In this document: one piece after another, positions 4,594 to 20,700 of the stretch
Layout of the letters: each line of letters starts with the position of its first letter
How positions within the stretch are numbered: position 1 is the first letter of the stretch
IMG/VR virus record: IMGVR_UViG_3300001765_000038
Coordinates: 1-64,000 of that record
Reading direction: 5' to 3' (one strand)
Source: a virus
Lineage: Duplodnaviria > Caudoviricetes
Length of the DNA: 64,000 bases
Program-made: the position numbers and the translations under genes
The notes under the pieces: model-generated
What the model saw: the letters and a program-made list of their open reading frames with translations, nothing else
What the model was told of the DNA's origin: nothing
Database searches by the model: none

Positions 4594-6888
4594 TTATCCA
4601 CCAATTACGGTACTAAAATTAACACCTGTCTTAGTTGCAATAAAGTTAAGATAGATAAAGTTAATCGAACGAGCGGGCTTAACATATATATCTGCAATAA
4701 ATTCATTGCGATCAATAACTTCACCGGTGTTATTTGTTTCATCACAAATGACCATAAAGTCAGTTATGCCACGACGACCCTGAACATCACGCAAGAATGG
4801 TTCAACCATATTCTTAAATTGTGCTCTAGTGAATGAATCGTTGAATTCAAACAACTGATATTTAGCCGCAGTGCTGATAGATTTTTCAAGAATAATAAAC
4901 AAACGACGCACATTGATACGGTCAAATGCACTTGGTTTTTCTTGCATTGTACGATCACCAAATAACACTGTACCTGATCCTGGGAATGTTACAACAGGAT
5001 TAATACCCTTTGGATAAAGAATATCACGTTCAGCTTGTGAAGGAACATAATTCAACTTAATCACATTGCGAATTGAACCGCGGTTAAATCCGCCGGGACT
5101 CCACCATGGATCTGTTAATTGATCTGTTCTTGCACAAACACCAGCAATGTCACCGTTCAATGGGATCCAACGATACTTACGATTATAAGCATCATAAATG
5201 TATTTATAACCTGTATCAATAATACCATAAGATTGATAAAGATCAGCAAGATTTAAGCCATCTTTAAATGCAATTAAATCCTCAACCATTGTTGATTTGT
5301 TAATGAATGGTGTAGCAAATTCAGTTGTTACTGAAACAACTCCACTGTTTCTTGTATATGAAATTTTATGTGGTGATGCAAACGTTACACAATCACGTCT
5401 TGTCTGTGCCATTTCAACTGCATGTCTAATAACAGCAATTGGATGATTGCCTGTAATGATCAAATTAACATCAATTTCTTCTGGATTAGCTAATCTATCG
5501 TATGCATCATTAATTTCAGAAGGAGTACAAGCAGCACCTGCTAAACCACCTGATAATGTATATGACACTTTAGCTGTAAAATCAGCAAACTTTTGATCAG
5601 TACCAGAAACATCAAATGCATATGAACCCCATGCAAATGTAGAAATATTATCTGCAACTTCAACACTTGTCGAAGGATGAGAATTCCAATATGCATATGC
5701 TGATTGTGCATTAACTACATCACCGTAAAACATTGATGTGTTTTTATAATCGACTGCATCAACAGCTTTTGAACAATAATTGAATACTTCCAATACACTG
5801 TTTGCTGTATTTGTGATTTGACCTGTATTATCAATGATCAATACTGAAAGTTCATCAGATTTTGTAGTAGGTGTTGCTGTAGCGCGACCACCAACAAAAG
5901 ATGACGTACCAGGAATTGCAGGAAGGAATTCAGTGTAATTTTTGCCAGAATAATCTACCATTGCTGAATCAGCCGCAACTAAATCATAGTTACCAGCATC
6001 AATCAAAACAATCTTAAGTGCATTACCTGCAGTACCAGGTTGTTTAGCAATGAATGTGCCTGAAGCAGACAAAAGATTATTTGACCATTTGTCAGCATAG
6101 TCATCATAGTTCTTAACAAGAATCGATGCAGCAGAAGTCTTTGTAGAAGCCACCGTACCTGTACGATCTTCACCAGCTACAGTACCAGTAACAGTAAATC
6201 TATTAATATCTAACACTGTACCTTGAGTTCCGATAACTGCCATGTTTGAATCAGTTGTAGTATAGGTAATTGTATCATTATCTACTCTAGTAACTTGATA
6301 TGTACCGTTATATCCTGCTGGAGAAACACCAGCAATTGTTACCCAATCACCAGTAACTAAATCGTGTGCTGTTGCAGTATTTACAGTAGCTATAGTCCCA
6401 GATGAAGAACCAGATAATGTAGCAACAGTAGTAGTGTTAAGAGTTGCAACTGTATATGCACCATCAGCAGGAGCAGGAGTGCCTGTAAAATCTAATGTTA
6501 ATTCCTGACCTACGGTATACAAATGATGAACGATTTTAACGTTAATCGTAGTTGAACCTGTGGATTGGGTAAAATCACCATATTTAGTAACACTAGTAAT
6601 GTTTCCAGTTTGTGAGGCATTCATACATCCTGTAGGAGCAGCGCGAACAACCCAACATTTATTAGTATAACCTAAAAACTGTGACACAGAAAACCAAGAA
6701 CCATAGTTTATATCGTTTGGTTGTCCGAATACTTCAACCAATTTATCTTCTGATGAGATAAGAATTGGTGTTTCAATTGGGCCTTTAGTAAAATCACCGG
6801 CCAAACCGCCGATAGATGACGCTACATTAGGTACAATTGTTGAGAAATCTTTTTCCTTAATAAGGACGCCTGGGCTCAATAATGGCAT
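4594..6888 (-). CDS. gp18: Tail sheath protein (gp18) with inserted beta-barrel domains
   Basis: LSPGVLIKEKD start, WWSPGGFNRG, RDILYPKGINPV, LFGDRT, FDRINVRRLF, FEFNDSFTR, KPARSINFI motifs. Confidence 0.98.
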   Translation of the reverse strand: MPLLSPGVLIKEKDFSTIVPNVASSIGGLAGDFTKGPIETPILISSEDKLVEVFGQPNDINYGSWFSVSQFLGYTNKCWVVRAAPTGCMNASQTGNITSVTKYGDFTQSTGSTTINVKIVHHLYTVGQELTLDFTGTPAPADGAYTVATLNTTTVATLSGSSSGTIATVNTATAHDLVTGDWVTIAGVSPAGYNGTYQVTRVDNDTITYTTTDSNMAVIGTQGTVLDINRFTVTGTVAGEDRTGTVASTKTSAASILVKNYDDYADKWSNNLLSASGTFIAKQPGTAGNALKIVLIDAGNYDLVAADSAMVDYSGKNYTEFLPAIPGTSSFVGGRATATPTTKSDELSVLIIDNTGQITNTANSVLEVFNYCSKAVDAVDYKNTSMFYGDVVNAQSAYAYWNSHPSTSVEVADNISTFAWGSYAFDVSGTDQKFADFTAKVSYTLSGGLAGAACTPSEINDAYDRLANPEEIDVNLIITGNHPIAVIRHAVEMAQTRRDCVTFASPHKISYTRNSGVVSVTTEFATPFINKSTMVEDLIAFKDGLNLADLYQSYGIIDTGYKYIYDAYNRKYRWIPLNGDIAGVCARTDQLTDPWWSPGGFNRGSIRNVIKLNYVPSQAERDILYPKGINPVVTFPGSGTVLFGDRTMQEKPSAFDRINVRRLFIILEKSISTAAKYQLFEFNDSFTRAQFKNMVEPFLRDVQGRRGITDFMVICDETNNTGEVIDRNEFIADIYVKPARSINFIYLNFIATKTGVNFSTVIGG

Positions 6889-6921
6889 AACTTATACTCC
6901 TTTATATGTGTTTTTATAATA

Positions 6922-7001
6922 TATTTATTATCATATATTTATGAATAAAATTAACTTAACGCCACTCAAAATACCAGTTAAGTTTTATTGTAATATTTAT
7001 G
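6922..7001 (-). promoter_or_regulatory. Three ATAAATA late-promoter boxes upstream of gp18
   Basis: AATAAATA (6922-6929), CATAAATA (6936-6943), CATAAATA (6994-7001); each a 7/8 match to TATAAATA. Confidence 0.55.
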
Positions 7002-7947
7002 TTTTTGCATTATTTAGCGATAAATAGAGGTTTTCAATGATATGAGTTCTAAGATCCAAAATGTCTGTTCTATTAAACGTATCTATGATAAACATCACAA
7101 ACGATACATGACCAGATTTTAATGAAAAGTCTATAATGAAATTTTGAACTTCTCTCAGCGATCCAAATTCTAACAACAGAGTCATCATATTATAATACAT
7201 ATCATTGTACTCTTTAGTATTGAATAATTCCATAATCAAATATTGAAGCACATACATTCTAAATGACATCTTTTCATGCTTAGTATGCTGAAGATATAAC
7301 TTACAATACTTAACAACATCAAACGATTTTTCATTTCTAACGAAATGTTGAATAGCAAACCAAAGTGCATGAGTATTACCAGTTTCTTCAAAATCGTCAA
7401 TACATAGTTTAGTGTACCAAGTATCTTTTTTAAGATGATTATTTACATGATGATGTAGCCAAATATCAGTTCTGAATTCATTACTTTCACCATCAAGCGG
7501 TTCTAAAAACTCATGAATTCTGTTTTTCCATTGATAATATTTATTCTTGAAGAATTTTTTATTTCCTTCTTTGTATTCTTTCCATTCACCATCTTCTTGC
7601 AAACTATTCACTCGACACCATGCTGCTGTACAAGAAGGATTATTATGTATTGCATCTTCTAATTTTTTGCGCCATCCTTCTTCTAAAATTTCATCAAAAT
7701 CTACTGTAACTATCCAATCAACATCATCTGGTACTAATGTTAGGGTTGCATTTCGTGCTTTAGAAAAATTAAATGGTTCAAATATTTCCTGTGTTACTAT
7801 ACAATTAGCATCTTTAAGTAATTGCATAGAATTATCAGTTGATCCAGTATCAACTACTACTGTAATATCAGCTTCTTTTGCTGCATCTAACCATTTTGGA
7901 ATATATGTTTCTTCATTTTTACAAATAGCAGTTATAGCGATTTTCAT
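6997..7947 (-). CDS. GT2-family glycosyltransferase with helical (TPR-like) C-terminus
   Basis: AICKNEE, VVVDTGSTDNS, FNFSKARN, DxD motif (VDFDE), NRIHE; GT-A fold typical of GT2/TPR protein glycosyltransferases. Confidence 0.85.
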   Translation of the reverse strand: MKIAITAICKNEETYIPKWLDAAKEADITVVVDTGSTDNSMQLLKDANCIVTQEIFEPFNFSKARNATLTLVPDDVDWIVTVDFDEILEEGWRKKLEDAIHNNPSCTAAWCRVNSLQEDGEWKEYKEGNKKFFKNKYYQWKNRIHEFLEPLDGESNEFRTDIWLHHHVNNHLKKDTWYTKLCIDDFEETGNTHALWFAIQHFVRNEKSFDVVKYCKLYLQHTKHEKMSFRMYVLQYLIMELFNTKEYNDMYYNMMTLLLEFGSLREVQNFIIDFSLKSGHVSFVMFIIDTFNRTDILDLRTHIIENLYLSLNNAKT

Positions 7948-7948
7948 A

Positions 7949-8758
7949 TCAATATTGTCCTAAGTTATATTCATTAAAAAGTTCACTTATCCTCATTGCC
8001 CAATCAACATGCGGATCATTATTTATCGGATTCATATGATTTGCTAAACTTGGAATAGGTCTCAAACCTAAATTTCTTTTTGTAAATTCCCACAGTTGTG
8101 GTTCTCTATCATGCACATCATTGTTTATATATGCCTTTTTAATATATTCATTTTGAATGAGTTTTTGTTTATAGAAAAAAGTATGATGAGATGAATTAGA
8201 TTGTGCCCATACACGATGTTTAGAATGAAATAAACGATAATCGAGTTTGCCTTGTGTTAATGTACTATCTTCTAGATACATTGATGGTTCATTGCTAGGA
8301 TGTAAAATAAAATCTGTGTTTTCATATCCATGTAAAATCTTTTGTTGATTTGTAAAAATTTCATCTATAGCAATTATAGATTCTTTAAGAAAAATGTAAT
8401 CATCTTCAACATGACATATAATATCTTCAGGATTGAAAGTAATTATTTTGTTATATGCAACATTCAACCAAGACAAATATTGCCCAACTCCAAGACCCAA
8501 TGCATCAATATCGCCATGAGGTTTTACTTCAATGAATTCAGTAATTTTTTGATTCATGAAAAAATCTGTTAATCTAGATGTTAATCGATCTGCGATAATA
8601 TAGATTTCTGGAACAATCTTTGCATGTTTAAATGAATCAATCAGTGATATAAATGATAAAATAGAAAGTTCAGTTTTACCTAAATTATATAATCTACCGC
8701 CGCCGTGAATACTTAAAATTTTTGAATCATGTGTCGTAAAAACAATTTTATATGTCAT
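7949..8758 (-). CDS. Putative GT-A fold glycosyltransferase
   Basis: ICHVEDDYIF acidic motif; C-terminal RPIPSLANHM shared with 11937..12731. Confidence 0.65.
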   Translation of the reverse strand: MTYKIVFTTHDSKILSIHGGGRLYNLGKTELSILSFISLIDSFKHAKIVPEIYIIADRLTSRLTDFFMNQKITEFIEVKPHGDIDALGLGVGQYLSWLNVAYNKIITFNPEDIICHVEDDYIFLKESIIAIDEIFTNQQKILHGYENTDFILHPSNEPSMYLEDSTLTQGKLDYRLFHSKHRVWAQSNSSHHTFFYKQKLIQNEYIKKAYINNDVHDREPQLWEFTKRNLGLRPIPSLANHMNPINNDPHVDWAMRISELFNEYNLGQY

Positions 8759-9306
8759 TTCAATCCTAATTTAAGTTTTTCTTCAGGAGTGTAAAGATTT
8801 ATATCATGATTCATTATATAATGCTGAGTCAATCCACCTAAAAATGAATGATACAACCATGGTCTGAAAAACACACATTGATTGGGTTTTAATGTGACAC
8901 TTGTAATACAATCCCATTCTAAAATATTATTATTATACGAATTTAATCTTGGGTTTGATAAAGCATCTTCAGTACCATCACTATGTTTATATAATTGAAA
9001 TTGTGTTTCAACTAATGCAATAGTAAAACACCAGTCTAATGGTGTTTTAAAATCTTCATAATGAATATTGATCATAGGTTTTCTGAATACACCAGAATTT
9101 TGTTCATCTATCACTAATTTATCATCTTGACACATATGTCTAAATCTACCTAATAAAGAAGGATCGATCATGTTAAAATCATCTACTTCATCACCAAACT
9201 TTTTAGGCACATAACGCAAATCATAAACAGCACCTGCTATATCATGAATATCATTATAAAAATTATCAATATACATCAATTTAACTAAAGCGACTGAAAC
9301 TGTCAT
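8755..9306 (-). CDS. Putative 2OG-Fe(II) oxygenase-like protein (DUF6445-like)
   Basis: YIDNFYND start, HxD/E-type motif (IHYED), distal His in FRPWLYHS after KPNQCVFF. Confidence 0.6.
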   Translation of the reverse strand: MTVSVALVKLMYIDNFYNDIHDIAGAVYDLRYVPKKFGDEVDDFNMIDPSLLGRFRHMCQDDKLVIDEQNSGVFRKPMINIHYEDFKTPLDWCFTIALVETQFQLYKHSDGTEDALSNPRLNSYNNNILEWDCITSVTLKPNQCVFFRPWLYHSFLGGLTQHYIMNHDINLYTPEEKLKLGLK

Positions 9307-9308
9307 AT

Positions 9309-9908
9309 CTATTCCTTAATTTTCTTTGCGACAAAACAATTAGACATTGTTCTGAATATTTCTATCTTATCTGAAAAAACATTTGCGAATGAATCTATTG
9401 CTAATTTTGGTCTCATAGTTAAACTATATACGTTTTGATTCCATAGGTAATCATCACACATAATTACTCCGCCAACTTTTAGCATATTGAAACCTAAAAT
9501 ACAATCATTTAAAACATCAGGTGCTTGATGAGAACCATCAACATATATAAAATCATATTTAGCATTTTGCTGTTGCAACTGACATAAACAATCAATACTA
9601 TTTCCTCTTAAATGGGAAATTTGATCTTCCTTACCACTTTCATTCATATTATATAAAAACGTTTCATAGATTTCTTCAAAATCAGTACCATCATGTTCAA
9701 TACCACCTTTCCAATTATCAATACACATGATTTTAGATTCAGGGTTAGTGCAATAAACATCTAGAAAATAAGTAGTAGAATAACCTTCATATGACCCAAT
9801 TTCAAGAATGGAAATAGGTTTTCCTTCCCATCCTTGAGTTTTTTGAATCATGAATAAGGTGTCAACCTTATCAGTGAACCAATTGATTGTGAACTTAAAG
9901 TTACGCAA
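9309..9908 (-). CDS. Class I SAM-dependent methyltransferase (Methyltransf_24-like)
   Basis: ILEIGSYEG, CIDNW, YDFIYVDGSH, LKVGGVIMCDDY. Confidence 0.88.
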   Translation of the reverse strand: MRNFKFTINWFTDKVDTLFMIQKTQGWEGKPISILEIGSYEGYSTTYFLDVYCTNPESKIMCIDNWKGGIEHDGTDFEEIYETFLYNMNESGKEDQISHLRGNSIDCLCQLQQQNAKYDFIYVDGSHQAPDVLNDCILGFNMLKVGGVIMCDDYLWNQNVYSLTMRPKLAIDSFANVFSDKIEIFRTMSNCFVAKKIKE

Positions 9909-11382
9909 TTTCTAGTTCCTCTATCAATTGATCAAGTTCATTCAATGGTTCATTCCAAAACTTTGGTGTAACTTGTCGAGCAAGACGTAAATTATCACCA
10001 TACCAACTCACCTTCTTACCACCCTCTGCCCAAATATAATAATCCATGATAGGAACAAATACGATTGTTTTCTTCCCAAGTGCTGCTGCCGCATGAGCAA
10101 TAGAAGTACATGAAGTAATGATCAAATCTAAATTGTTTAAACATCCCAAGGCGTCTTCAAAATTCTCTAGTTTGTCATGTAAAGGTGTGATATTCGGATA
10201 TTGTTCAAGTCGTTCCAAATCATAATCTCTTTGAATTGAATAAATGTCCCATCCTTTATCTTCAATCTTTTTCATCAACCCTTCCAATGGGAGGGAACGG
10301 TGCAGATCATGTTCATATAATGGGTTGCCGGACCAACGAATACCTACTCTCAATTTACCATTATTGGGTAAAATTTCTTTCCATTTCTTATCATATTCTG
10401 GATCAACCGTCAAATAGGAACCGTCCCAAAGATCAGGAAAATCAACATTACATACTTTAGGCAGATTCATTGCAGGTGTCCAAAAATCGAAATCCATAAT
10501 TTGTGGAATATCTGTGGTAAATTTGCGATAGTTGAAAGTAGTTTCATAAGGCATTCTGGATAATACTGTATCCAGTTTCTGACAAGAAGCAAATGATGCT
10601 TTCATCCCCATTGCATTAATATGTTTGACGAATCGAGCATTAATAATTTCATCACCAATACCACCTTCACCTACAATGAGAATATGTTTGCCTTTATATT
10701 CTTTACCATCCCATTCGGGGATTGGGAACCTATGTGTATATGAACCCCAAATTCTCAATTTACGTCCAATTGACAAATAATCCATGCCTGTACGCAAATC
10801 ACCATGACGAATATAATGTGCACCCATATTAAATTGGATTGCCAATGCGTTTCTTTCATCAAACTTCCAACTTTCATTATTCAATTCTTTAAGAATTTCA
10901 AAACCTTCTTCTTTTTTATTACATGCATATAATGCAGCAGCAAGGTCAAGTTTAACATCAACCTTTTCTGGATTCATTTTAGCTACCATCTCAAATGAGT
11001 TTTTTGCTTTAATAGGTTCATTACCATTGAGATAACATTTACCAATGTTGTATCTAACCGATGTTTTTTCTTGTGGTGATGATGCAGCACCTACTGCCAA
11101 TTCACCATATTTTATAGCAGTTCTATAATCTTTGGCTTTATAATAGGCATAACATAGCAAATCATATCCCATAAGATTTTTAGGTATAATTTTATCCTTA
11201 GATAATTTACCGAACACTGTTTTTGTGAGTTCGAAATTTTCTGTTCTATTGAACAAATCAACAATTCTATGTAACGCAGCAAAATCATTTAGTGTGTCAT
11301 TTTGTCTGCCAATCATTTCTTCATTGATTTCATTGGCCGCTGTTGTGGGAACCATACAATTATTATCTACACAATTACTCAT
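9901..11382 (-). CDS. TPR-repeat protein fused to a GT9-like (GT-B) glycosyltransferase
   Basis: N-terminal TPR helices (YNIGKCYL, LDLAAALY); GEGGIGDEI, GIRWSGNP, DLIITSCTSIAHAAAALGK. Confidence 0.85.
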   Translation of the reverse strand: MSNCVDNNCMVPTTAANEINEEMIGRQNDTLNDFAALHRIVDLFNRTENFELTKTVFGKLSKDKIIPKNLMGYDLLCYAYYKAKDYRTAIKYGELAVGAASSPQEKTSVRYNIGKCYLNGNEPIKAKNSFEMVAKMNPEKVDVKLDLAAALYACNKKEEGFEILKELNNESWKFDERNALAIQFNMGAHYIRHGDLRTGMDYLSIGRKLRIWGSYTHRFPIPEWDGKEYKGKHILIVGEGGIGDEIINARFVKHINAMGMKASFASCQKLDTVLSRMPYETTFNYRKFTTDIPQIMDFDFWTPAMNLPKVCNVDFPDLWDGSYLTVDPEYDKKWKEILPNNGKLRVGIRWSGNPLYEHDLHRSLPLEGLMKKIEDKGWDIYSIQRDYDLERLEQYPNITPLHDKLENFEDALGCLNNLDLIITSCTSIAHAAAALGKKTIVFVPIMDYYIWAEGGKKVSWYGDNLRLARQVTPKFWNEPLNELDQLIEELEIA

Positions 11383-11950
11383 CTTTTATCACCATCCATG
11401 TAAATTTAACATCAACAATAGTATTATTCAATTCACGAAGCATTCGTTGAAATTGAGCTTCTTCTTTTGATCCTTGTTGCATACCTTCTAACATTGGTTG
11501 ATACATTGGATCAATATTGAATTTATAATCCATGATCTCAAAATCAATATCATAATACAACCCTAAACGACTTGAACCATCTTCAACCTCTATACAGTAT
11601 TTATTGTGAGATTTACTGAACAATCTCATACCTTCAATAGTAATTGGGCGGCGATGAGTTGGGTCATTCATAAAACAATCATGTCGATGATGTGGCACAA
11701 CTACTTCAATTACTGCATTGGGTTTACAAACACGATATAGTTCTTTAAGAAAGATAAAGAAATCGGGATCACCCAAATGCTCGAACAAATGATGAGAAAT
11801 GACAGCATCAACAGAATTATCTTCCCAAGGCCAATCTGGTTTACTTAAATCAACAACAAAATCTGGATCACACTCCTTATCAAAATCAACATTTAAATAT
11901 CCATCAAAATGTTTGTAACCTGCTCCAAGATGTAGTTTAATTCCACTCAT
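11375..11950 (-). CDS. Class I SAM-dependent methyltransferase (Methyltransf_11-like)
   Basis: KLHLGAG..FDGYLNVD, DL...WPWEDNSVD, HLFEHL, ELYRVCKP, DPTH; start taken at the second Met (ORF track starts at 11956). Confidence 0.85.
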   Translation of the reverse strand: MSGIKLHLGAGYKHFDGYLNVDFDKECDPDFVVDLSKPDWPWEDNSVDAVISHHLFEHLGDPDFFIFLKELYRVCKPNAVIEVVVPHHRHDCFMNDPTHRRPITIEGMRLFSKSHNKYCIEVEDGSSRLGLYYDIDFEIMDYKFNIDPMYQPMLEGMQQGSKEEAQFQRMLRELNNTIVDVKFTWMVIKDE

Positions 11951-12731
11951 AATCATGCCACTCCTTCTTCCAATTAGTAAAATTTGTTGTTAAGTCATTC
12001 GGTGATTCATTTTGATAAGACATATGATATGCTACAGAGGGTATTGGCGAAAAACAAGCTATCGGCCCACCATGTCTGACCAAATTTGTGTAAAGTTGAT
12101 TTATAGTATCATGCTCTTTAACTTTTGGATAATTTAATGCTAAATTCTCAAATATTGGCCAAAACGTCTGTAATGTGTTTTTGTGAATCATCATTGTATT
12201 AGCAGTATAATGAGTAGTTTTCCAATAACGCTTTTCAAAATAAAATAGCATAGTAGGTTCAATCAAACCCGGCCAATATCTGTGCGGACTATCAAATGGA
12301 GTTATAACCATTGGGTTAAATTTGTGATATTGAATTGCTGGTGCCGATTGAAAAAAACTAGTCATTGTTGAAATAGAATCAGCAGTATGAAAATAATCAT
12401 CCTCAATAAAATATATAAATTCTTCTGCTTCTAATCCATGTTTGAATTGCATATACGCAGAATGATTAAATCCCGTTTCTTCAAGATTAATTATTTCATA
12501 TGGATGAAAAAGTTTTTCTGCTCTTTCTTTCAATTCAACAAGAAATTCTTCTGATGAGTGATCGTCTAAAACCTTTATTTTAATATTGTGATATGAATTA
12601 TTACATGCTTTAAACACTGAATCTGCACATTTTAAAATCATGTCTTTGCGATCATCTGATACTAAACGTGTTTGACCGTTTTGTAATGCTCCTGATCGAT
12701 CACATGTTCTAAGTATTACATCAAGTTTCAT
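11937..12731 (-). CDS. Putative GT-A fold glycosyltransferase, paralogue of 7949..8758
   Basis: VILRTCD, VLDDHSS, IYFIEDDYFH, SPIPSVAYHM; likely start MKLDV at 12731. Confidence 0.7.
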   Translation of the reverse strand: MKLDVILRTCDRSGALQNGQTRLVSDDRKDMILKCADSVFKACNNSYHNIKIKVLDDHSSEEFLVELKERAEKLFHPYEIINLEETGFNHSAYMQFKHGLEAEEFIYFIEDDYFHTADSISTMTSFFQSAPAIQYHKFNPMVITPFDSPHRYWPGLIEPTMLFYFEKRYWKTTHYTANTMMIHKNTLQTFWPIFENLALNYPKVKEHDTINQLYTNLVRHGGPIACFSPIPSVAYHMSYQNESPNDLTTNFTNWKKEWHDYEWN

Positions 12732-12738
12732 AATGTTA

Positions 12739-13362
12739 TTACTCCATTTTCTTAAAAATAGCACTCAATATATTAGGTAAACCATGCAGCGTTCCCCTAA
12801 TTTTATCTTCATATGAAGACATTTCTATCAATTTAAAATTACTCTTATAAAACAAATTAGCTAAACCAACTGCACTAAAATGATGTCTATGTTCATTTGG
12901 TTTACGATGTTTCCATGTCTCAAATTCTTTGCCCTCATAATGATTCCATGGCACCGATATAGATATATATCTACATTTTAGTTGATTCAAAATGTTGTTT
13001 AAATCTACCTGCGGAAAATGCTCCAAAGAATCAAAAAACGATACAATATCCACCGCCTCATTTATGTTTTGAGTGATCGTTATCTCTTTGGGTAACTCAT
13101 ATCCAGAAATATCATATCCAAAACATATTTTATCATGTTTTAAACAATATTTCAAAAAAGATCCGTTGCCATATCCAACATCTAAAATAGATTTAAATTT
13201 GATATTTTTTTTGATAAATTCATATCGAAGCTTAGACATGTCATCAACCATTGCATAACGATCATACACATCATGCACATAATTATAATCATATTTTATA
13301 TCACCGGTTTTATTTGTTTGATATAACCAACCCGGCAAAATTTCTTCATATTTTTCTTTCAA
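12739..13362 (-). CDS. Class I SAM-dependent methyltransferase
   Basis: SILDVGYGNGSFL, FGYDI, FFDSLEHF, ISISVP, HFS motifs. Confidence 0.85.
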   Translation of the reverse strand: MKEKYEEILPGWLYQTNKTGDIKYDYNYVHDVYDRYAMVDDMSKLRYEFIKKNIKFKSILDVGYGNGSFLKYCLKHDKICFGYDISGYELPKEITITQNINEAVDIVSFFDSLEHFPQVDLNNILNQLKCRYISISVPWNHYEGKEFETWKHRKPNEHRHHFSAVGLANLFYKSNFKLIEMSSYEDKIRGTLHGLPNILSAIFKKME

Positions 13363-14503
13363 TACAGTACCTCACATAATTTGATGCATCGTCAATGCAC
13401 CCAATCCAATCACCAATTTTATGTTGGGGGAAAACATGCACATTTTTAAACCACGGTTTATTTGACCAACACATATAAGGGCGTTTTGGTGCAATAACAA
13501 TAGTATGTTTTCCAAGCGCTGCTGACATAACAGAAACTGAAGTTTCATTTGTAATCACAAAATCACATCTATCAAGCATTGCTAAAGTGTCATCCCAATT
13601 TTTATATTCAAACTCTAACATTTTTTTAGGAGTTTCAACTGGAAAATCTGAAATAACTTCTTTATGTAGTGATACCAAATTACCAAACGATACAAAACTA
13701 GATTCCAAATAACTTAACGGAGATATAATTGATCGAGGAGTGTCACCATGCCATCTCATTCCAATTAAAGGTTTGTCATTAGGTAGCTGATATGTTATGT
13801 TTTTATCTGATATTAAATATGGAGAGGTATCGGGTTTGTTTATATTTAATCTAATAGGCAATGAAAATATATCAATCCAATAATCATGTTCAACTGGCGT
13901 TGTATATGAAGATATTGACACATTAAAACATCTTTTAACTATATCTTTAATTGATTCTGAACATGCCACAACAACATTACATATTGATAATAAAGGGCGA
14001 ATAAAATTCAAATATATGATTTCATCACCATACCCTGCTTCAGTAAGAACTAATAACGTTTTACCCGATATATTTTGACCATTCCAATATTTTTCTTCAT
14101 CATATCCATAAGTTTTGTATTTGAATAAATTTGCTTCATTTTCTAAATTCTTACTTGTATGAGTTCTCGCTACACCATATTTGTGATCATTATATAATTG
14201 AGCATGTAAATGACTTATATCAGAATAATTTTTGAATGCCTCTAAATGGTTTCCCATAGAATGATTTAAAAAATATAATGCACTCAAATAATCACTTTTA
14301 GATAATTTAGAATATGGTAAAACTTTTTGTAATAGTGACATATCATTAAGTTCAAGTATGTAATTAATTAAAATTCCCCATTGTTCTTCATTCAATTCTT
14401 CTTCAATAGGGAATTTTAATATTGATAAAACATTATTTGCATACTCGAAATTTTTTATAACAATTGCATTTACAACCAAACTAATCATCTCATATGTTTC
14501 CAA
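13346..14503 (-). CDS. Helical/TPR-like domain fused to a GT9-like glycosyltransferase, paralogue of 9901..11382
   Basis: YWNGQNISGKTLLVLTEAGYGDEI, IGMRWHG, DFVITNETSVSVMSAALGK. Confidence 0.8.
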   Translation of the reverse strand: METYEMISLVVNAIVIKNFEYANNVLSILKFPIEEELNEEQWGILINYILELNDMSLLQKVLPYSKLSKSDYLSALYFLNHSMGNHLEAFKNYSDISHLHAQLYNDHKYGVARTHTSKNLENEANLFKYKTYGYDEEKYWNGQNISGKTLLVLTEAGYGDEIIYLNFIRPLLSICNVVVACSESIKDIVKRCFNVSISSYTTPVEHDYWIDIFSLPIRLNINKPDTSPYLISDKNITYQLPNDKPLIGMRWHGDTPRSIISPLSYLESSFVSFGNLVSLHKEVISDFPVETPKKMLEFEYKNWDDTLAMLDRCDFVITNETSVSVMSAALGKHTIVIAPKRPYMCWSNKPWFKNVHVFPQHKIGDWIGCIDDASNYVRYCIERKI

Positions 14504-15264
14504 AAATCAAGTTTTTCGTACTCATTGAATACATCAGGGGGAAGAATAGTTGGACGTTCTTTAAATTCTACTGTTTTACGAACATGATGTAGTCCTTTAA
14601 TATTCATGTCTGTGTCAAATTCATCGTATTTAGTATCTACGTTATTAAAATCGTGCTCATACCAATCTTCACCAATAAAATCGTAAAGTTTTCTCATAAT
14701 CACTTTTGGATTTTTTGCCAATTGATCATATTGAATAATGTGGAGATTTTTATTAGCGGCACCAAAAATTGCTTGTTTTACACCGTTATATGCAAACCCG
14801 ATAAAAGCATCTGGTTGTAAAAGATATGATGTTCTTGAATATACAGATACACCATGTCCAGGCGGAAACATTAATGGCACATCATATGGATTTTTTGCAA
14901 ATAGTTGTTCGAAAGAATCTAATACCCATGGAATAGATCTAATGCAACAAATTACTTTTGCTTGTGGATATAAATCTGACAATAAAGGTAAAAGATAAGT
15001 CCAACCTCTGTTGGTATCAAAAGCAACTTCATTTGAAGTGTTGTAATAGGTGCTAATTACATTATGAATTAATTCTTTTCGTTTTTCAGCTGGACATTGA
15101 AAACGATAACCACCTTGTGATTGTGATTCTTCAATAATGGCACGAGTGAATCGTGCCACTGGTCCTGAAATGGACGAAGAAAACTTAGGATTTTGTCCTA
15201 AAATAGACGATAAAAGTGTTGTTCCAGAACGAGGTAATCCTGATATAAAATGTATTTTTTTCAT
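14485..15264 (-). CDS. Sulfotransferase
   Basis: HFISGLPRSGTTLL 5'-phosphosulfate-binding loop, KVICCIRS, IIQYDQLAKNP, LYDFIGE. Confidence 0.9.
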   Translation of the reverse strand: MKKIHFISGLPRSGTTLLSSILGQNPKFSSSISGPVARFTRAIIEESQSQGGYRFQCPAEKRKELIHNVISTYYNTSNEVAFDTNRGWTYLLPLLSDLYPQAKVICCIRSIPWVLDSFEQLFAKNPYDVPLMFPPGHGVSVYSRTSYLLQPDAFIGFAYNGVKQAIFGAANKNLHIIQYDQLAKNPKVIMRKLYDFIGEDWYEHDFNNVDTKYDEFDTDMNIKGLHHVRKTVEFKERPTILPPDVFNEYEKLDFWKHMR

Positions 15265-15298
15265 AATATCTCCAAAGTAAAAATTTCAATTCACATGT

Positions 15299-15306
15299 TA
15301 TTTATA
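15299..15306 (-). promoter_or_regulatory. Perfect T4 late promoter TATAAATA upstream of the glycan-modification cluster
   Basis: Plus-strand tatttata in the 47-nt gap, 35 nt upstream of the sulfotransferase ATG; GGAG RBS at about 15269-15272. Confidence 0.8.
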
Positions 15307-15311
15307 CCGAA

Positions 15312-17495
15312 TTATCCAGCAGCCATAATCACCCAATTTGTACCATCTGATACTAACGTAACCCATTTGCCTGCAGTTGCTGGTAAAATATCTGTGCCAG
15401 CAGTTGTGTTATTAATTGGCACAATGTTAGATGCAACAGAAACTACTGTGAATGCAGCAATAGTTTTAATTATAATTTCTCTGCCTGTAAATGTTGCAGC
15501 TGCTGGCATTGTTATATTAATTGTTGCTGTACCATTACAAACAATTCTATCTTCTGTTATCGCTACAGTAAAATCACCAGTTTTGGTAACAGGAGCATTT
15601 CGTTTTAATGCACCTATGATTGTTGTTGTAGTTGATACAGTACTACCCAAATTAATATTAGTTGTACTACCTGCAGATCCTGCAGTACCTATATTGATTG
15701 TCTTTGTGCCACCAGTATCAGCTGCAGTCAATAAGTTAAGTGTTCTGCTTGTTGTGCCAGCAGTTGTATAACCAAGATTAAGGGTTGTGTTTGTGTTTGC
15801 ACCAATACTGAGTGATGCTGCATCGGTAATACCAGCAGCAGTGCCAGTAATGTTACTATCTAAGAATGCGATTGTTTTTGCTGCACCATTATAAAATGTT
15901 AATGCACCTGAAACATTCCATAAATCTCCGTTTGTAGTTGTTGTGCTTGTACCGCTTGGTAAGTTTATTGATGCTACAGCACCAGATGGTGTAGCAAATG
16001 TTTGTTTAACTGTAAATGCAGTTGATGCATTATGTGTAATAACAGTACCTGCAGCTGTAGCAGGGAATGTATAAGTAGTAGCAGAACCAAATGATAATGT
16101 AGCATCATTAGTGTTAGTAGTCAATGATGTAGTTAAAGTTAACGATTTGCCAGTTGTTCCATCAATGGTCAATGATTTAGCAGAACCTGCACCGACAATT
16201 AGTGTTGATCCTGTATAACCATCAAAAGTTAATAATTTAGCAGAACCTGTACCGACAGTTATTTTAGAACCAGTAAATCCATCAAATGTAAGTGATTTGG
16301 CTGATGTTGTACCAACTATCAATGTTGAACCTGTATAACCATCAAAAGTTAATGTTTTTGCTGATACTGTTCCCACATTTAATCTTGAACCTGTATATCC
16401 ATCAATTGTAAGAGATTTAACACCACCAACACCGACGATCAATGTTGAACCTGAATATCCGTCAAATGTAAGTGATTTTGCAGAACCTGTTCCAATGAAT
16501 AAAGTTGAACCTGAAATACCGTTAAGTGTTAAAGTTTGAGCAACGGTTAATGTTTTGCTTGTTACGCTGAATGCCAATGTTCCACCATTTGTTGAAACAA
16601 CAAAATTACCTGCTAATGATAAAGTGCCCGTTGTAAAAGATAAAGCATTTGGTGCTGTTGCTGATACGGCACCATTCACACCAAATGTTGCAACTCCACT
16701 TGTGCCAATGTTTGGTAATTTAACACCACCAGTAATCGTTGTGTTAAGTCCAACCTTACCCATGTAAATATCAGCATTTGATCCAATATTAACTGTTGTA
16801 GTATCAGCGCTTGTAAATAAATTTGCGGTAGAGTTTGCTGATCCAGAAGTAATTGATTGTACTGTATCGCCAACAGAACTTAAAACAATATCACCAGTGT
16901 TGACTGTTAAAAGACCGTTGACAGTTAAATCATCTGCTACATTGACAATACCAGTACCGTTTGCTGACAATGTTAAATTAGTGTCAGTTGTTGTAGATGC
17001 TAATGAATTGGCGAATAAAGAAGTAAACGTGCCGCCACTAGGTGCACCGCCACCAATTGGACCATTAAATGAAGAAGCAGTAATTGATGTAAATGTACCT
17101 GCTGCAGCTGTAGTGGCACCAATAACTACATTATTCATTGAACCAGCAGTTTGTGATGTAATAACAACAGCACCAGCAATCGGTGTTAATGAAACTGGTC
17201 CTTCTAATTTAGTAATTCCCTCAACATTAAAATTCTGTTTAATATTAAGATGCCCAGTAATAGTATCACCTGATCTTTTAACTTTTCTACTATTGAGATC
17301 ATTTAATGTTCCAGTAATAATATCTGCAAGAGGTAAAGAATAGTTATCACTTGAGTTTGGATATTCTACACCAGTATTATTAGGAGCGTCTGTTATATAA
17401 ACAGAACCCAAATCACCAATGCTATTAGAAATTTCATTGGTGATATTTCTCCACTGTTCGATTGTGTTAAATCTTGATACTGTTGGTTTTGACAT
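15312..17495 (-). CDS. Tail/whisker fibre-like protein
   Basis: N-terminal FNTIEQWRNITN attachment-type motif, Gly/Ser/Thr-rich beta repeats, C-terminal TMPAAATFTGREIIIK...LVSDGTNWVI fibre-tip-like domain. Confidence 0.7.
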   Translation of the reverse strand: MSKPTVSRFNTIEQWRNITNEISNSIGDLGSVYITDAPNNTGVEYPNSSDNYSLPLADIITGTLNDLNSRKVKRSGDTITGHLNIKQNFNVEGITKLEGPVSLTPIAGAVVITSQTAGSMNNVVIGATTAAAGTFTSITASSFNGPIGGGAPSGGTFTSLFANSLASTTTDTNLTLSANGTGIVNVADDLTVNGLLTVNTGDIVLSSVGDTVQSITSGSANSTANLFTSADTTTVNIGSNADIYMGKVGLNTTITGGVKLPNIGTSGVATFGVNGAVSATAPNALSFTTGTLSLAGNFVVSTNGGTLAFSVTSKTLTVAQTLTLNGISGSTLFIGTGSAKSLTFDGYSGSTLIVGVGGVKSLTIDGYTGSRLNVGTVSAKTLTFDGYTGSTLIVGTTSAKSLTFDGFTGSKITVGTGSAKLLTFDGYTGSTLIVGAGSAKSLTIDGTTGKSLTLTTSLTTNTNDATLSFGSATTYTFPATAAGTVITHNASTAFTVKQTFATPSGAVASINLPSGTSTTTTNGDLWNVSGALTFYNGAAKTIAFLDSNITGTAAGITDAASLSIGANTNTTLNLGYTTAGTTSRTLNLLTAADTGGTKTINIGTAGSAGSTTNINLGSTVSTTTTIIGALKRNAPVTKTGDFTVAITEDRIVCNGTATINITMPAAATFTGREIIIKTIAAFTVVSVASNIVPINNTTAGTDILPATAGKWVTLVSDGTNWVIMAAG
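16152..16511 (-). repeat. Six tandem 60-nt (20-aa) repeats in the fibre
   Basis: Consensus GSTLIVGTGSAKSLTFDGYT, six copies. Confidence 0.9.
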
Positions 17496-17518
17496 AATTT
17501 GCCTCTAATGTTTTTTAA

Positions 17519-17526
17519 TATTTATA
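17519..17526 (-). promoter_or_regulatory. Perfect late promoter TATAAATA upstream of the fibre gene
   Basis: Plus-strand tatttata overlapping the stop of 17522..17725, 24 nt upstream of the fibre ATG; AGAGG RBS. Confidence 0.75.
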
Positions 17527-17725
17527 ATGAAGATATTTTTTCGAGAACATCTTTAAGTGTTAATTTAATAACACGCACTTCATCTTCTAATTTTCTAATT
17601 TTCTCTTTCATAGATTCTTGTTCTATTTTTCCAGCATTCAAACGATTGCGTTCTTTAATATAGTTTTCATATTCTTGTTTATCAGAATTTATAACTGCAG
17701 TTTTAGTTTTTACTAGATTGTTCAT
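17522..17725 (-). CDS. Small coiled-coil protein of the type that follows the large DUF4815 virion protein in T4-like phages
   Basis: AVINSDKQEYENYIKERN followed by a heptad coiled coil; gene position. Confidence 0.65.
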   Translation of the reverse strand: MNNLVKTKTAVINSDKQEYENYIKERNRLNAGKIEQESMKEKIRKLEDEVRVIKLTLKDVLEKISSL

Positions 17726-20700
17726 TATAACACCATTATCACTCTAAGATTTTTAATTCGCGGAACCGCAGATGTATTAGTAGATCTTAGATCTACTTTA
17801 ATTTCTAATTTATCATATATGTCGATAGAATTGCTAAAATTAAAGTCAAATCTCTTTTCAATGAATTCATTGCTGTTGTTTGTCACTTTAACGTTAATAC
17901 CTCGTGAATCATTATAAATTGTATTACCAAGTGTCCAAACTGCATTATTAAATTCATAATCACCACGACATTTTTTATAATAGATTCTTATCTCAGATCC
18001 ATATGGTAAGTTATAATCATAAAACAATATGAAGCCATCAACGGGAGTTTGCAAAGATATAACTTGCGAACAATAACTTGCTGAATTAGTATTATAATTT
18101 ATTGAAGCTGAATCAGTATAAAAATCATAACTGTAAGCTACAATATCGGCCGTAATTGATTCATAAATCATGTCACTATCATTTCTCACATATAATATTA
18201 AATCAGTACCAGTATTTACCTTATTTATTATTAACATCTGAATACCATCATTAGAAACAGTATTTTCAAATTCTAATGTTTGTCCAACTTTTGCTTTATG
18301 ATAAATTTCAGCTGCTGAAGTACAAACAATAGCGCTTGCTGTAGAATTAAATAGTAATGATACCGAGCCAGAATATAAAATATTTTTATCAATAGGTTTG
18401 TTAGTATCAAAATCATAATTATCTATCTTATTTGAAATCGCATTTACTGAGAAAGTAGAAAGATCTATAATAGGTGATAAATCTGGGTTCTTAGAATATA
18501 ACAAGGCATTTAATGTAAATGATTTTTTACCAGTCAATAATCTATCTTCATTTTCTTTTGATAACACCCAACCAGGTTCTGTTAAATAAGCACTTCTTTC
18601 AAGTTCAATTTTTTGATATGTATTTTCTTTAACTCTAGAATCATTTGTTTTTGCAAACGAATAATCAATGTAAGTTCCAAGTAATACAAAATCATTGCCA
18701 TCTAAATATAATACATCATATTTCTTATTACCCATCATATACAATGAGTCATCACCACTCCAAGTTGAAGCAGTTGCAGCTGCAATATTAATAATGAATG
18801 AATCTGTAGTTGCGTCATTTACTGCAAACAGCATATTGTCTGGATTGGCAAAACTAGACGAAACAGCTTGTAGAGATGTATTTTCATTAGCATTAAATTT
18901 AACATAATCACCGTTAATCAAACCGTGACTTTCATGTAATACTCTTGCTTGTGTGAGACCGACAGATGTTTTTATAGGATCAATAATCATTTTATCAGCA
19001 TTAAAATAGTTATTGTTTAGATATACTGTTCCTGCACCGCTTATATCAAATTGAGCTTTATACAGAGTAAAGCATAAATCTTGCATTTGATATGCAGTCC
19101 ATGATGATCCATTCTGTGATTGCAACATAGTACCTAAAGTGGGCTGTTTAACACACATGTTTCCGTATATATCTAATTCTCCTAATTCTGAAGTCCATAC
19201 AGTAACTCCATTATCCATCACATAATTAGAACCTATCACTATACAATATTCTGTTTCATTTTTCAAAAATACAGGTGCATTGAATGTGAATGTAGTTGAT
19301 ACTAATTTAGTGGAAGAATAATTTAATTCATCTGCATTTTTAACAACCGTGCTCATTGGAATTGCTTGAATAGCTGGATAACCATTGACCATTTCACGTA
19401 GTTCAACAAACACTGGATAAGCATTCTGTTTCACATTGTAAAAATATAAATCTACTTTTGTGACAAAAATACCAGCTCCAAACGAATCAACCACAAATGA
19501 TTGTGCTAATGGATCACCACCGCCACCACCGTCACCACCGCCACCACCGCCATCAATAAAATCAGCTAATATAGTTGAAATACTACTGCGAGCTGTAGCA
19601 GTTGTTGGAGGTGGTGATCCAAATATAGACGGTGCAACAGTAGGTGCTGGTGTTGGTGCAGGAGTAAAAGCAGAAGTTGTGATACTTGAAACATTAGTAG
19701 ACGATGTTGTCCAATTTTCTTGTACAACTTGAGACTGTTGAAGTTCAACATCAACTATATTTGCATTTTTAACTGATAATATGTCTGTCTGTGTAGTAAA
19801 TGATAATCCATGAGGATCGTAAGTAGCAACAGCACTTGTAACTGAATTGACTATATTCTTGTTATCACGAATCTGAATATTAACTATTTGTGCTAAAAAT
19901 TTTATATTGTCGTTATTTGGAAAAACCAATACACCGTATACTGATCCAGAAGGACTTGATACAAATGCGTCTTTAGTAATACTTGAAATTGTGACATATG
20001 CTTTAGACGTAAGACCAGTAACAGTTTCACCTTCTAAAAATGTTCCTTGTATATTTGTCACTTTAAGATTGTCATATTCATCTGTCAATAGAATAGCAGT
20101 TGCTTTAGATGTAGATCCAACAACAATCTCACCTCTATCTAGAATATCATAACTATTTGGACCATATTGACGATATTCTAGATTAGTTTGAGAAATAGGT
20201 GAATTCAAATAATTTAAAAATTCGCCTACCTTACCAGTATATGCTAATGAATAAGCAGTATCAACATAATCAGTAACTTCAATATTATCAATATATGCAT
20301 ATAGTTGATAATTGGGTAAAAAGTTTTGACCATAAAACACGATTACTTTTTGTCTTGCATAAACATCCCAAACGGTGTTTTGAATTCCAGTAATTCTACC
20401 TAATTCATCTTGTCTTTCTTGAGCAACTGTTTCTGTACCAAGTTTCAACTGTGATACATTATTAATTCCATCAATTGTAGTTACTGTAGTTGTAGTACGA
20501 GTGGTTGTTGTTGTGGTACCTGCAATTGTTGTTGATGAAGATACACTATTTGTTGAACTTGAATCTATACTTGTCTTTGATGATGCTATTACTCTAGCAG
20601 TATCTTTCCAAGCACCCCAAACAGTTTTGAGAATTCCTAATCTTTGTGCTGCTTGTTGTAACGAATTATAATTACCATCATTCAATTGATTAACATCTGG

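Follow-up and report, generated by a model that had tools for sequence, protein, structure and literature searches.

A Predicted Late Ten-Gene Operon of an Aquatic T4-Like Phage as a Candidate Pathway for Modifying Its Own Host-Recognition Proteins

Introduction

What does a phage modify with ten enzymes whose genes lie among those of its virion? We address this question for an operon of sulfotransferase, glycosyltransferase (GT), methyltransferase and oxygenase-like genes, found on the minus strand of the IMG/VR virus record IMGVR_UViG_3300001765_000038, of which positions 1 to 64,000 were analysed (hereafter the window; the virus contig is 75.8 kb long in all, with a CheckV completeness of ~46%). 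The source phage is a T4-like aquatic myophage with portal, prohead protease, tail tube, sheath and baseplate wedge genes on the minus strand, and its sheath protein is 35–46% identical to those of pelagimyophages and cyanomyophages. The reading that we favour, which in our judgement could equally well prove right or wrong, is that the ten enzymes, all soluble and expressed late from one operon, post-translationally modify the host-recognition proteins of the phage itself before these are assembled. We place the action of the enzymes on virion proteins because the core enzyme joins tetratricopeptide repeats (TPR) to a GT-B domain, because membrane components are missing and because a linkage to genes for RCC1 propellers is conserved among related loci.

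Results

Operon Layout and Putative Late Promoter

The ten open reading frames (ORFs; o1 to o10, Table 1) span 6997–15264 on the minus strand, are all co-directional and are packed with overlaps of 4–26 nt or gaps of 1–2 nt; their G+C content (29–34%) is similar to that of the remaining window. This agrees with a preliminary description of the DNA, which had claimed a tightly packed ten-gene operon between a fibre-like gene and the sheath gene. A transmembrane check found no membrane-spanning segment in any of the ten proteins, and the operon is without a flippase, a polymerase, an undecaprenyl-linked step or a lipid-carrier transferase. A megablast search with the entire cluster found nothing among 50,697 phage records.

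We then examined the proposal, made in the same description, that a perfect late promoter precedes o1. The TATAAATA octamer is rare in the window: chance would give 14.8 copies, but there are 5, each of them on the coding strand. Eight of the 17 ATAAATA cores on the minus (coding) strand fall within ~850 nt of intergenic DNA, which makes up ~1.3% of the window. Seven of these eight lie 24–81 nt upstream of gene starts, including those of the sheath, a baseplate wedge protein, the 727-aa fibre-like protein and o1, and the eighth is a second copy, 106 nt upstream of the sheath start. As in T4-type late units, a TATAAATA box is found 20–50 nt before the first gene and is common to the structural genes. 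The box upstream of the sulfotransferase gene is conserved in the closest relative of the window phage, the IMG/VR contig L003 (L003:6130), as well as in the loci L028, L042, L048 and L066, and representative loci show a strong coding-strand bias of the motif. The late-promoter reading holds since the motif is enriched before structural genes and is kept before the sulfotransferase gene in five other lineages. This supports the view that the operon would be expressed as a late, structural-gene-like transcription unit. The NATAAATA box positions also provide a usable late-promoter map of the phage, and a TATAAATA palindrome was seen in L003 at position 15870.

At its other end, the operon may terminate at the AT-rich hairpin (~6953–6984), where a terminator scan made no call. 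In the spacer that follows, the CATAAATA and AATAAATA boxes lie 48 and 34 nt upstream of the sheath ATG.

Core Enzymes

In Pfam, o6 has TPR matches only, and the GT41 catalytic family does not match it even at E ≤ 10. A phmmer search against PDB sequences returned only TPR proteins for o6 and nothing for o8, so that structure prediction was needed for both. The AlphaFold model of o6 (pLDDT, the predicted local distance difference test score, of 88) consists of a TPR superhelix (residues 21–207) and a GT-B domain with a Rossmann pair (residues 227–493). In this model, the GT-B fold can be superposed on solved GT9 enzymes, and the order of an N-terminal TPR superhelix followed by GT-B is that of GT41 proteins such as OGT and SPINDLY. 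Using the whole chain, the top Foldseek matches are bacterial OGT, SPINDLY and Xanthomonas OGT (5djs, 8dti, 2jlb; E 2e-8 to 8e-8). With the catalytic domain, GT9 heptosyltransferases rank first, the adhesin-glycosylating TibC among them. In the GT domain, the G-x-G-D-E motif (D244) that comes after the first strand is invariant, and its position is the one that we take to be that of the catalytic Asp in WaaC.

The second enzyme of this type, o2, has a C-terminal domain paralogous to that with which o6 catalyses (30% identity over 234 aa, E 3e-22). Its structural neighbours in the Atlas are TPR+GT9/GT41 proteins, with template modelling (TM) scores of 0.77–0.80. In Pfam, o2 does not match the GT9 family PF01075, and o2, o8 and o9 have no family match even at E ≤ 10. 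A protein of 533 aa from an ENA metagenome (P0123) consists of a sulfotransferase (PF13469, PF00685) fused to an o2-like GT9-type domain and therefore ties sulfation and glycosylation to one pathway. In a representative library, 14,050 clusters match the o2 catalytic domain at E ≤ 0.001; the best relatives (P0124–P0272) are giant proteins of 1,200–3,100 aa, mostly with 2–6 (at most 8) matched stretches in tandem.

Linkage to RCC1 Propeller Genes

A profile of o6 found 715 homologues in a protein database, and 80 IMG/VR loci were retrieved, which collapse to 33 clusters at 70% o6 identity and to 12 at 50%. An upstream flank longer than 3 kb is available for 31 clusters, of which 30 have an RCC1 propeller gene within 5 kb of the o6 homologue, at a median distance of 0.8 kb, these neighbourhood counts being inflated because the compared loci belong to related phages with shared ancestry. 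When the window proteins were compared by BLAST with the ORFs of the loci, a recurrent order appeared: two to five RCC1 propeller genes (~400 aa), an o5-type methyltransferase, the TPR-GT and a sulfotransferase. A DUF6445 gene is often found between the propeller genes, which are often interleaved with DUF6445 and methyltransferase genes, GT2/GT-A genes are often present too, and in loci that reach that far the sheath gene follows ~8–10 kb downstream. The usual upstream partner of the TPR-GT gene is the o5-type methyltransferase, which adjoins the o6 homologue in 57/80 loci and in two Bdellovibrio-like contigs. The order of propellers, DUF6445, Methyltransf_11-type (MT11) methyltransferase, TPR-GT and sulfotransferase is kept across lineages in which o6 is only 30–35% identical.

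Among the 50,697 phage records, o6 homologues were found in S-SRM01, BUCT-ZZ01 and AG-345-E08 only, and among the T4-like phages this propeller type is likewise confined to these three. The o6 homologues of S-SRM01 and BUCT-ZZ01 lie in the tail-fibre region. A pattern scan of cellular genomes found relatives in Bdellovibrio-like bacteria only, and one Bdellovibrio-like contig has the order RCC1, o6, o5. The o6 homologue in these genomes adjoins either an RCC1 protein whose N-terminus resembles a twin-arginine signal (RREFL; L083:1336–2568) or, on a Bdellovibrio chromosome (L086:1–7494), a secreted protein that is rich in Ser and Thr, has a signal peptide and is at least 2498 aa long.

In one related locus, L040, two propeller genes flank a gene for a DUF4376 protein (L040:5172–5795). 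DUF4376 is a domain of phage tail-fibre C-termini, and its occurrence at this place speaks for propellers that are part of the fibre apparatus. The same cassette contains a NUMOD3 homing-endonuclease-like gene (L040:1982–2662) between TylF-type methyltransferase and GT1/GT4 genes.

In the window phage, Pfam places RCC1 repeats in the DUF4815 baseplate protein (2355 aa, 17725–24792), and the free-standing propellers of the relatives match a 5017-aa protein of the window at 35–50% identity. Judged from these matches, the propellers of this phage are parts of giant virion (baseplate) proteins and not free-standing. L003 carries the same cassette, in which o1, o3–o5, o7 and o8 are 83–92% identical to their window counterparts and are better conserved than the sheath (69%), followed by o6 (77%), o9 and o10 (~63%) and o2 (only 48%). 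Directly upstream of the cassette, L003 has RCC1-repeat proteins in place of the 727-aa fibre. It also has four genes before the sheath that are absent from the window (12619–13440, 15157–15852, 15902–16255 and 16262–18067), comprising a second GT2, a GT25 'LPS biosynthesis' (lipopolysaccharide) protein and two ORFs (117 and 601 aa) that match no family.

Tailoring Enzymes

The preliminary description had assigned the ten genes to enzyme families, and nine of these assignments were verified. The exception is o10, which had been described as a GT2/TPR protein: its GT2 part stands (Table 1), but a TPR was sought in Pfam without a match at E ≤ 0.01, and the C-terminal third is without a family.

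The o1 protein scores above the family cut-off and has both motifs of sulfotransferases that depend on 3′-phosphoadenosine 5′-phosphosulfate (PAPS), namely the 5′-phosphosulfate-binding (5′-PSB) and 3′-phosphate-binding (3′-PB) motifs. The residues G9, R12, G14 and T16 of the GLPRSGTT loop are invariant, as are R109 and S117 with their R-x7-S spacing. The best solved relatives of the o1 family profile are the protein-tyrosine sulfotransferases TPST1/2 (E 5e-13 to 1e-9, positions 5–203), and the heparan-sulfate sulfotransferases reach E 0.03 only. Hence, the sulfate may go on a protein (tyrosine) instead of on a glycan. In 4/5 related phage records (Table 1), ORFs resembling kinases of adenosine 5′-phosphosulfate (APS) lie within the cassette or next to it, no more than a few kb 3′ of the TPR-GT gene, and in L040 the ORF is directly 3′ of the sulfotransferase gene. 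Their position at the cassette suggests a local supply of PAPS. No APS-kinase-like gene was found in the window contig or in L003, and no SIS_2 (GmhA) gene for heptose supply was found in the five related phage records.

The cut-offs for class I methyltransferases dependent on S-adenosylmethionine (SAM) are exceeded by o3, o5 and o7. D-D-Y is invariant in the family alignment of o4, and o9, which is classed as GT-A by its paralogy to o4 alone, has an invariant D119-D120-Y121. Against PDB profiles, the o4/o9 family gave weak matches only (GT25, E 0.046; chondroitin synthase, E 0.057).

The predicted structure of o8 is a double-stranded beta-helix, and its Foldseek matches include MINA53, NO66, OGFOD1, SnoN, HygX and PhyH (E 2e-4 to 1e-3, TM up to 0.53). 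Together with this fold, o8 has the HxD/E...H iron triad of Fe(II) oxygenases dependent on 2-oxoglutarate (2OG): H82-x-E84...H153 is present in 17/19 homologues, with H82 invariant and E84 nearly so. In the Atlas, o8 has DUF6445 clusters as its neighbours, by features as well as by structure. The DUF6445 family itself (PF20043) has no Pfam match to o8 at E ≤ 10, and a second DUF6445-type gene, L040:11967–12587, scores E 5e-15; the latter was not linked to o8 by BLAST of the window proteins against the loci. Since the matches of o8 include, among others, the ribosomal-protein hydroxylases MINA53, NO66 and OGFOD1, the hydroxyl may likewise go on a protein instead of on a glycan.

The Fibre-Like Neighbour

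The 727-aa protein encoded upstream of the operon is rich in Thr, Ser and Gly (29% Ser+Thr), has six 20-residue repeats and is without a Pfam or PHROG family. Its C-terminal 100 aa (15312–15611) are common to podophage proteins, with 58% identity to that of Pseudomonas phage PfAn1, which suggests that a receptor-binding tip may have been exchanged across phage types. The podophages with this tip have genomes of ~39 kb and comprise PfAn1, Phage DSL-LC05 and Enterobacter phage EP1. No relative of the 727-aa fibre was found in the 88 fetched loci, even without low-complexity masking, and it is missing in L003. A general link of the cassette to this fibre type was dropped on the grounds that the 88 loci hold no relative and that the protein has no Pfam or PHROG family. 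In this phage, the fibre may be an additional substrate; the low conservation of o2 in L003, which lacks the fibre, is compatible with this idea in a single comparison.

Table 1. Positions of the operon genes, their flanks, the promoter-like boxes and the APS-kinase-like genes (window coordinates unless a locus or record is named).
Feature	Position	Strand	Evidence or remark
o1, PAPS-type sulfotransferase, 259 aa	14485–15264	-	Sulfotransfer_3 PF13469, E 1e-16, 62.2 bits vs 27; phrog_27463, E 3e-46
o2, short helical N-domain + GT9-like GT-B, 385 aa	13346–14503	-	true start may be ATG at residue 6
o3, class I SAM methyltransferase, 207 aa	12739–13362	-	Methyltransf_23 PF13489, E 5e-15, 56 bits vs 27; phrog_6564
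o4, GT-A (GT2) glycosyltransferase, EDDY motif, 275 aa	11937–12764	-	PF00535, E 5e-6, 27.0 bits vs 23.3
o5, small SAM methyltransferase, 193 aa	11375–11956	-	Methyltransf_11 PF08241, E 3e-8, 34.7 bits vs 21.2
o6, TPR (~21–207) + GT9-like GT-B (227–493), 493 aa	9901–11382	-	conserved core enzyme
o7, O-methyltransferase-type SAM enzyme, 199 aa	9309–9908	-	Methyltransf_24 PF13578, E 7e-21, 75.6 bits vs 26.3; PF01596, E 8e-9
o8, DUF6445-like 2OG/Fe(II) oxygenase, 183 aa	8755–9306	-	model pLDDT 90, double-stranded beta-helix
o9, divergent GT-A paralogue of o4, 269 aa	7949–8758	-	BLASTP vs o4 E 9e-7; EDDY in common
o10, GT2 glycosyltransferase, 316 aa	6997–7947	-	PF00535, E 1e-9, 38.8 bits; PF13704, E 1e-7; phrog_13126, E 1e-39
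Late-promoter-like box TATAAATA	15299–15306	-	34 nt upstream of o1 ATG
Own TATAAATA box of 727-aa gene	17519–17526	-	
NATAAATA boxes	822, 6928, 6942, 7000, 15305, 17525, 34583, 43041	-	concentrated in intergenic DNA
Sheath gene	4594–6888	-	phrog_23, E 2e-121; downstream flank of operon
Spacer between operon and sheath	6889–6996	-	AT-rich inverted repeat (~6953–6984), then T-rich run, then CATAAATA + AATAAATA boxes
727-aa fibre-like gene	15312–17495	-	upstream flank of operon
APS-kinase-like ORFs	L040:14552–14956; G003:C1:156412–156675; G004:C1:48315–48587; G005:C1:88468–88776		PF01583 above cut-off, N-terminal half of model only

Discussion

In the course of events that we propose, the NATAAATA-type promoter at 15299–15306 would fire alongside the structural genes, and o6 and o2 would hold a structural protein via their helical repeat domain, which would be the substrate-selecting step. 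The substrate would be the RCC1 propeller modules in the giant baseplate proteins, and perhaps also the Thr/Ser-rich repeat fibre. The GT-B domain of o6/o2 would add the first sugar to Ser or Thr, in the manner of OGT, SPINDLY, FlmG and the GT9-type adhesin heptosyltransferases TibC/Aah, the GT-A enzymes o4, o9 and o10 would lengthen the glycan and the SAM methyltransferases o3, o5 and o7 would cap its hydroxyls, while o1 would transfer sulfate from host PAPS to a sugar or tyrosine and o8 would hydroxylate a side chain or a sugar. The sugar donors would be supplied by the host. The likely effect would be a changed adhesion, stability or recognition of the receptor-binding parts.

Beyond this phage, we tentatively propose, doubting it slightly more than believing it, that a dedicated pathway for modifying RCC1-propeller attachment proteins is common to aquatic T4-like phages and Bdellovibrio-like predators. 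In it, O-glycosylation by a GT9-like enzyme under TPR guidance, methylation, sulfation (perhaps of tyrosine) and 2OG hydroxylation would tune the recognition of prey surfaces, and it would represent a class of virion and adhesin decoration not described before. In the window phage, that pathway would have been expanded to ten enzymes and may serve the repeat fibre too. The preliminary description had envisaged a methylated, sulfated and possibly hydroxylated glycan on the virion. Of this proposal, the virion-protein target is the part best supported, whereas the sulfate and the hydroxyl may sit on protein and not on a glycan. The fibre and DUF4815 had been suggested as substrate partners; the recurrent neighbour is the RCC1 propeller and not the fibre or DUF4815 as such. 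Shielding or mimicry of the host surface, the purpose put forward there, found no support in the analysis.

Several points weigh against a decoration of the phage's own host-recognition proteins. Every functional step is read from fold, family and gene neighbourhood. The Pfam GT9 family (PF01075) scores o6 at 12.3 bits (E 0.1), under its 22-bit cut-off, and among the matches of o8 small-molecule oxygenases are as numerous as protein hydroxylases. In the window, the nearest RCC1 repeats are two genes upstream of the cassette, inside the 2355-aa protein, with no adjacent free-standing propeller. The compared loci are all from related aquatic T4-like phages, and part of the neighbourhood could be inherited order. 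Furthermore, polysaccharide loci too typically contain genes of the GT2, GT25, methyltransferase and sulfotransferase kinds, and the one paper that we found on this genomic region reports many LPS-type glycosyltransferases in it, from VrlC to the neck genes, and favours a modification of the host O-chain (PMC7029224).

These last two points belong to the main rival explanation, that the cassette remodels the host surface (LPS O-chain, capsule or another envelope glycan), for instance to block superinfection or to keep released virions from adhering to lysed cells. Methyl and sulfate caps are common on O-antigens, o4 and o10 are GT2 enzymes, L003 adds its GT25 'LPS biosynthesis' gene, and phrog_13126 classes o10 under morons/auxiliary metabolic genes, as a beta-1,4-glycosyltransferase. 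Such remodelling accounts for the GT2, GT25 and methyltransferase families. We nevertheless consider it rather unlikely. All ten proteins are free of membrane segments and the genes for a flippase, a polymerase and a lipid-carrier transferase are absent, expression appears to be late and alongside the structural genes, the TPR + GT-B architecture of the core enzyme is typical of protein substrates, and o1 is nearest to protein-tyrosine sulfotransferases. Nor does a host-surface target predict the near-obligate linkage to RCC1 propellers. This linkage would be fortuitous if the enzymes acted on something else, such as a host pilus, S-layer or flagellar protein, a non-virion phage protein or a small secreted molecule, the adjacency to propellers being an accumulation of accessory genes. 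The region is known to gather unrelated accessory genes (PMC7029224), and a homing endonuclease gene does lie inside the L040 cassette; in addition, the o8 fold also occurs in antibiotic-tailoring oxygenases, and o7 and the TylF-type enzymes of L040 resemble natural-product O-methyltransferases. Random accumulation, however, leaves unexplained both the same gene order in lineages with 30–35% identical o6 and the co-occurrence of o6 and the propeller in the same three T4-like isolates among the 50,697 records. With no scaffold-forming biosynthetic gene in the window cluster either, we find such another target quite improbable.

Glucosylated DNA is known from T-even phages, and bases carrying complex glycans from other phages (cited in PMC12619734). 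With three methyltransferases and several glycosyltransferases, the cluster could in principle hypermodify the phage DNA by base glycosylation or methylation as a defence against restriction. The composition of the cluster makes this barely credible: no methyltransferase is above the threshold for a DNA methyltransferase family, a weak PHROG name on o7 (E 6e-8, class I fold) being the only hint, and the cluster lacks a base-hydroxymethylase, a kinase and a DNA-binding domain. Its genes belong to a late structural operon, away from the replication genes, and TPR, the sulfotransferase and the RCC1 linkage are without a role in known DNA modification. DNA modification was rejected on these grounds, namely the late structural setting, the lack of DNA-modifying families and the absence of a role there for TPR, sulfotransferase and RCC1.

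Returning to the decoration of host-recognition proteins, the glycosyltransferase islands of this region are already published (PMC7029224), as is the glycosylation of mycobacteriophage virions. In the literature, we found no paper describing a module of propeller, TPR-GT9 and methyltransferase/sulfotransferase/oxygenase, and searches for RCC1 with a glycosyltransferase and a sulfotransferase in phages, for RCC1 in cyanophages and for glycosylated tails or capsids gave nothing relevant. The window operon is an expanded, ten-enzyme version of this module, in a phage whose propellers have become parts of giant baseplate proteins. If the reading is true, abundant phages of oceans and lakes chemically alter the proteins with which they bind receptors, adding sugars, methyl groups and sulfate. 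The fibre sequence would then not be the sole determinant of host range. Genome-based predictions of receptor binding would need revising, and the many annotated 'LPS genes' of pelagimyophages and cyanomyophages would need reinterpretation. Sulfated or heptosylated virion proteins would add to the few known cases of phage virion glycosylation, and the TPR-GT and the RCC1 propeller would constitute a concrete, testable enzyme–substrate pair in cultured cyanophages.

Among the known systems, the 'host recognition cluster' of pelagimyophages (PMC7029224) and the hyperplastic region of cyanomyophages (Millard et al. 2009, as cited in PMC7029224) have the same setting. These islands mix fibre genes and LPS-type glycosyltransferases within the structural module and were read as modifiers of the host O-chain (PMC7029224). 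RCC1, TPR and sulfotransferases are not mentioned in PMC7029224, and the core of propeller, TPR-GT and methyltransferase is not described there.

The domain order of o6, an N-terminal TPR followed by GT-B, is also that of OGT (GT41), SPINDLY and FlmG of Caulobacter, in which the TPR domain binds flagellins and glycosylation takes place in the cytoplasm, before export (PMC7591256). Compared with OGT and SPINDLY, the o6 catalytic domain is nearer to GT9 than to GT41, and the whole-chain TM-scores are low (0.3–0.4) because the domains are oriented differently.

The chlorovirus PBCV-1 has capsid glycans with methylated sugars, made with virus-encoded glycosyltransferases and methyltransferases. 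In mycobacteriophages, virion proteins are glycosylated by phage enzymes, according to the account of Freeman et al. 2023 given in PMC12619734. Both resemble the operon in that virus-encoded enzymes are found with or near the structural genes. The proteins modified in those systems are subunits of the capsid and tail tube or the major capsid protein; for the operon, receptor-binding modules are proposed. The enzyme families differ too, and sulfation and 2OG hydroxylation are not part of those systems.

The closest working analogy is provided by TibC/Aah and their substrates TibA/AIDA-I (PMC4358343; PDB 4RAP, 4RB4), where a GT9-type enzyme is paired with a repeat adhesin. TibC is an iron-containing dodecamer without TPR repeats (PMC4358343), whereas substrate capture would here use the TPR repeats. 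TibA and AIDA-I are beta-helical autotransporters, and the presumed substrates here are beta-propellers or a phage fibre. Unlike TibC, the core enzymes of the window phage are accompanied in their operon by additional GT-A, methyl-, sulfo- and hydroxylating enzymes.

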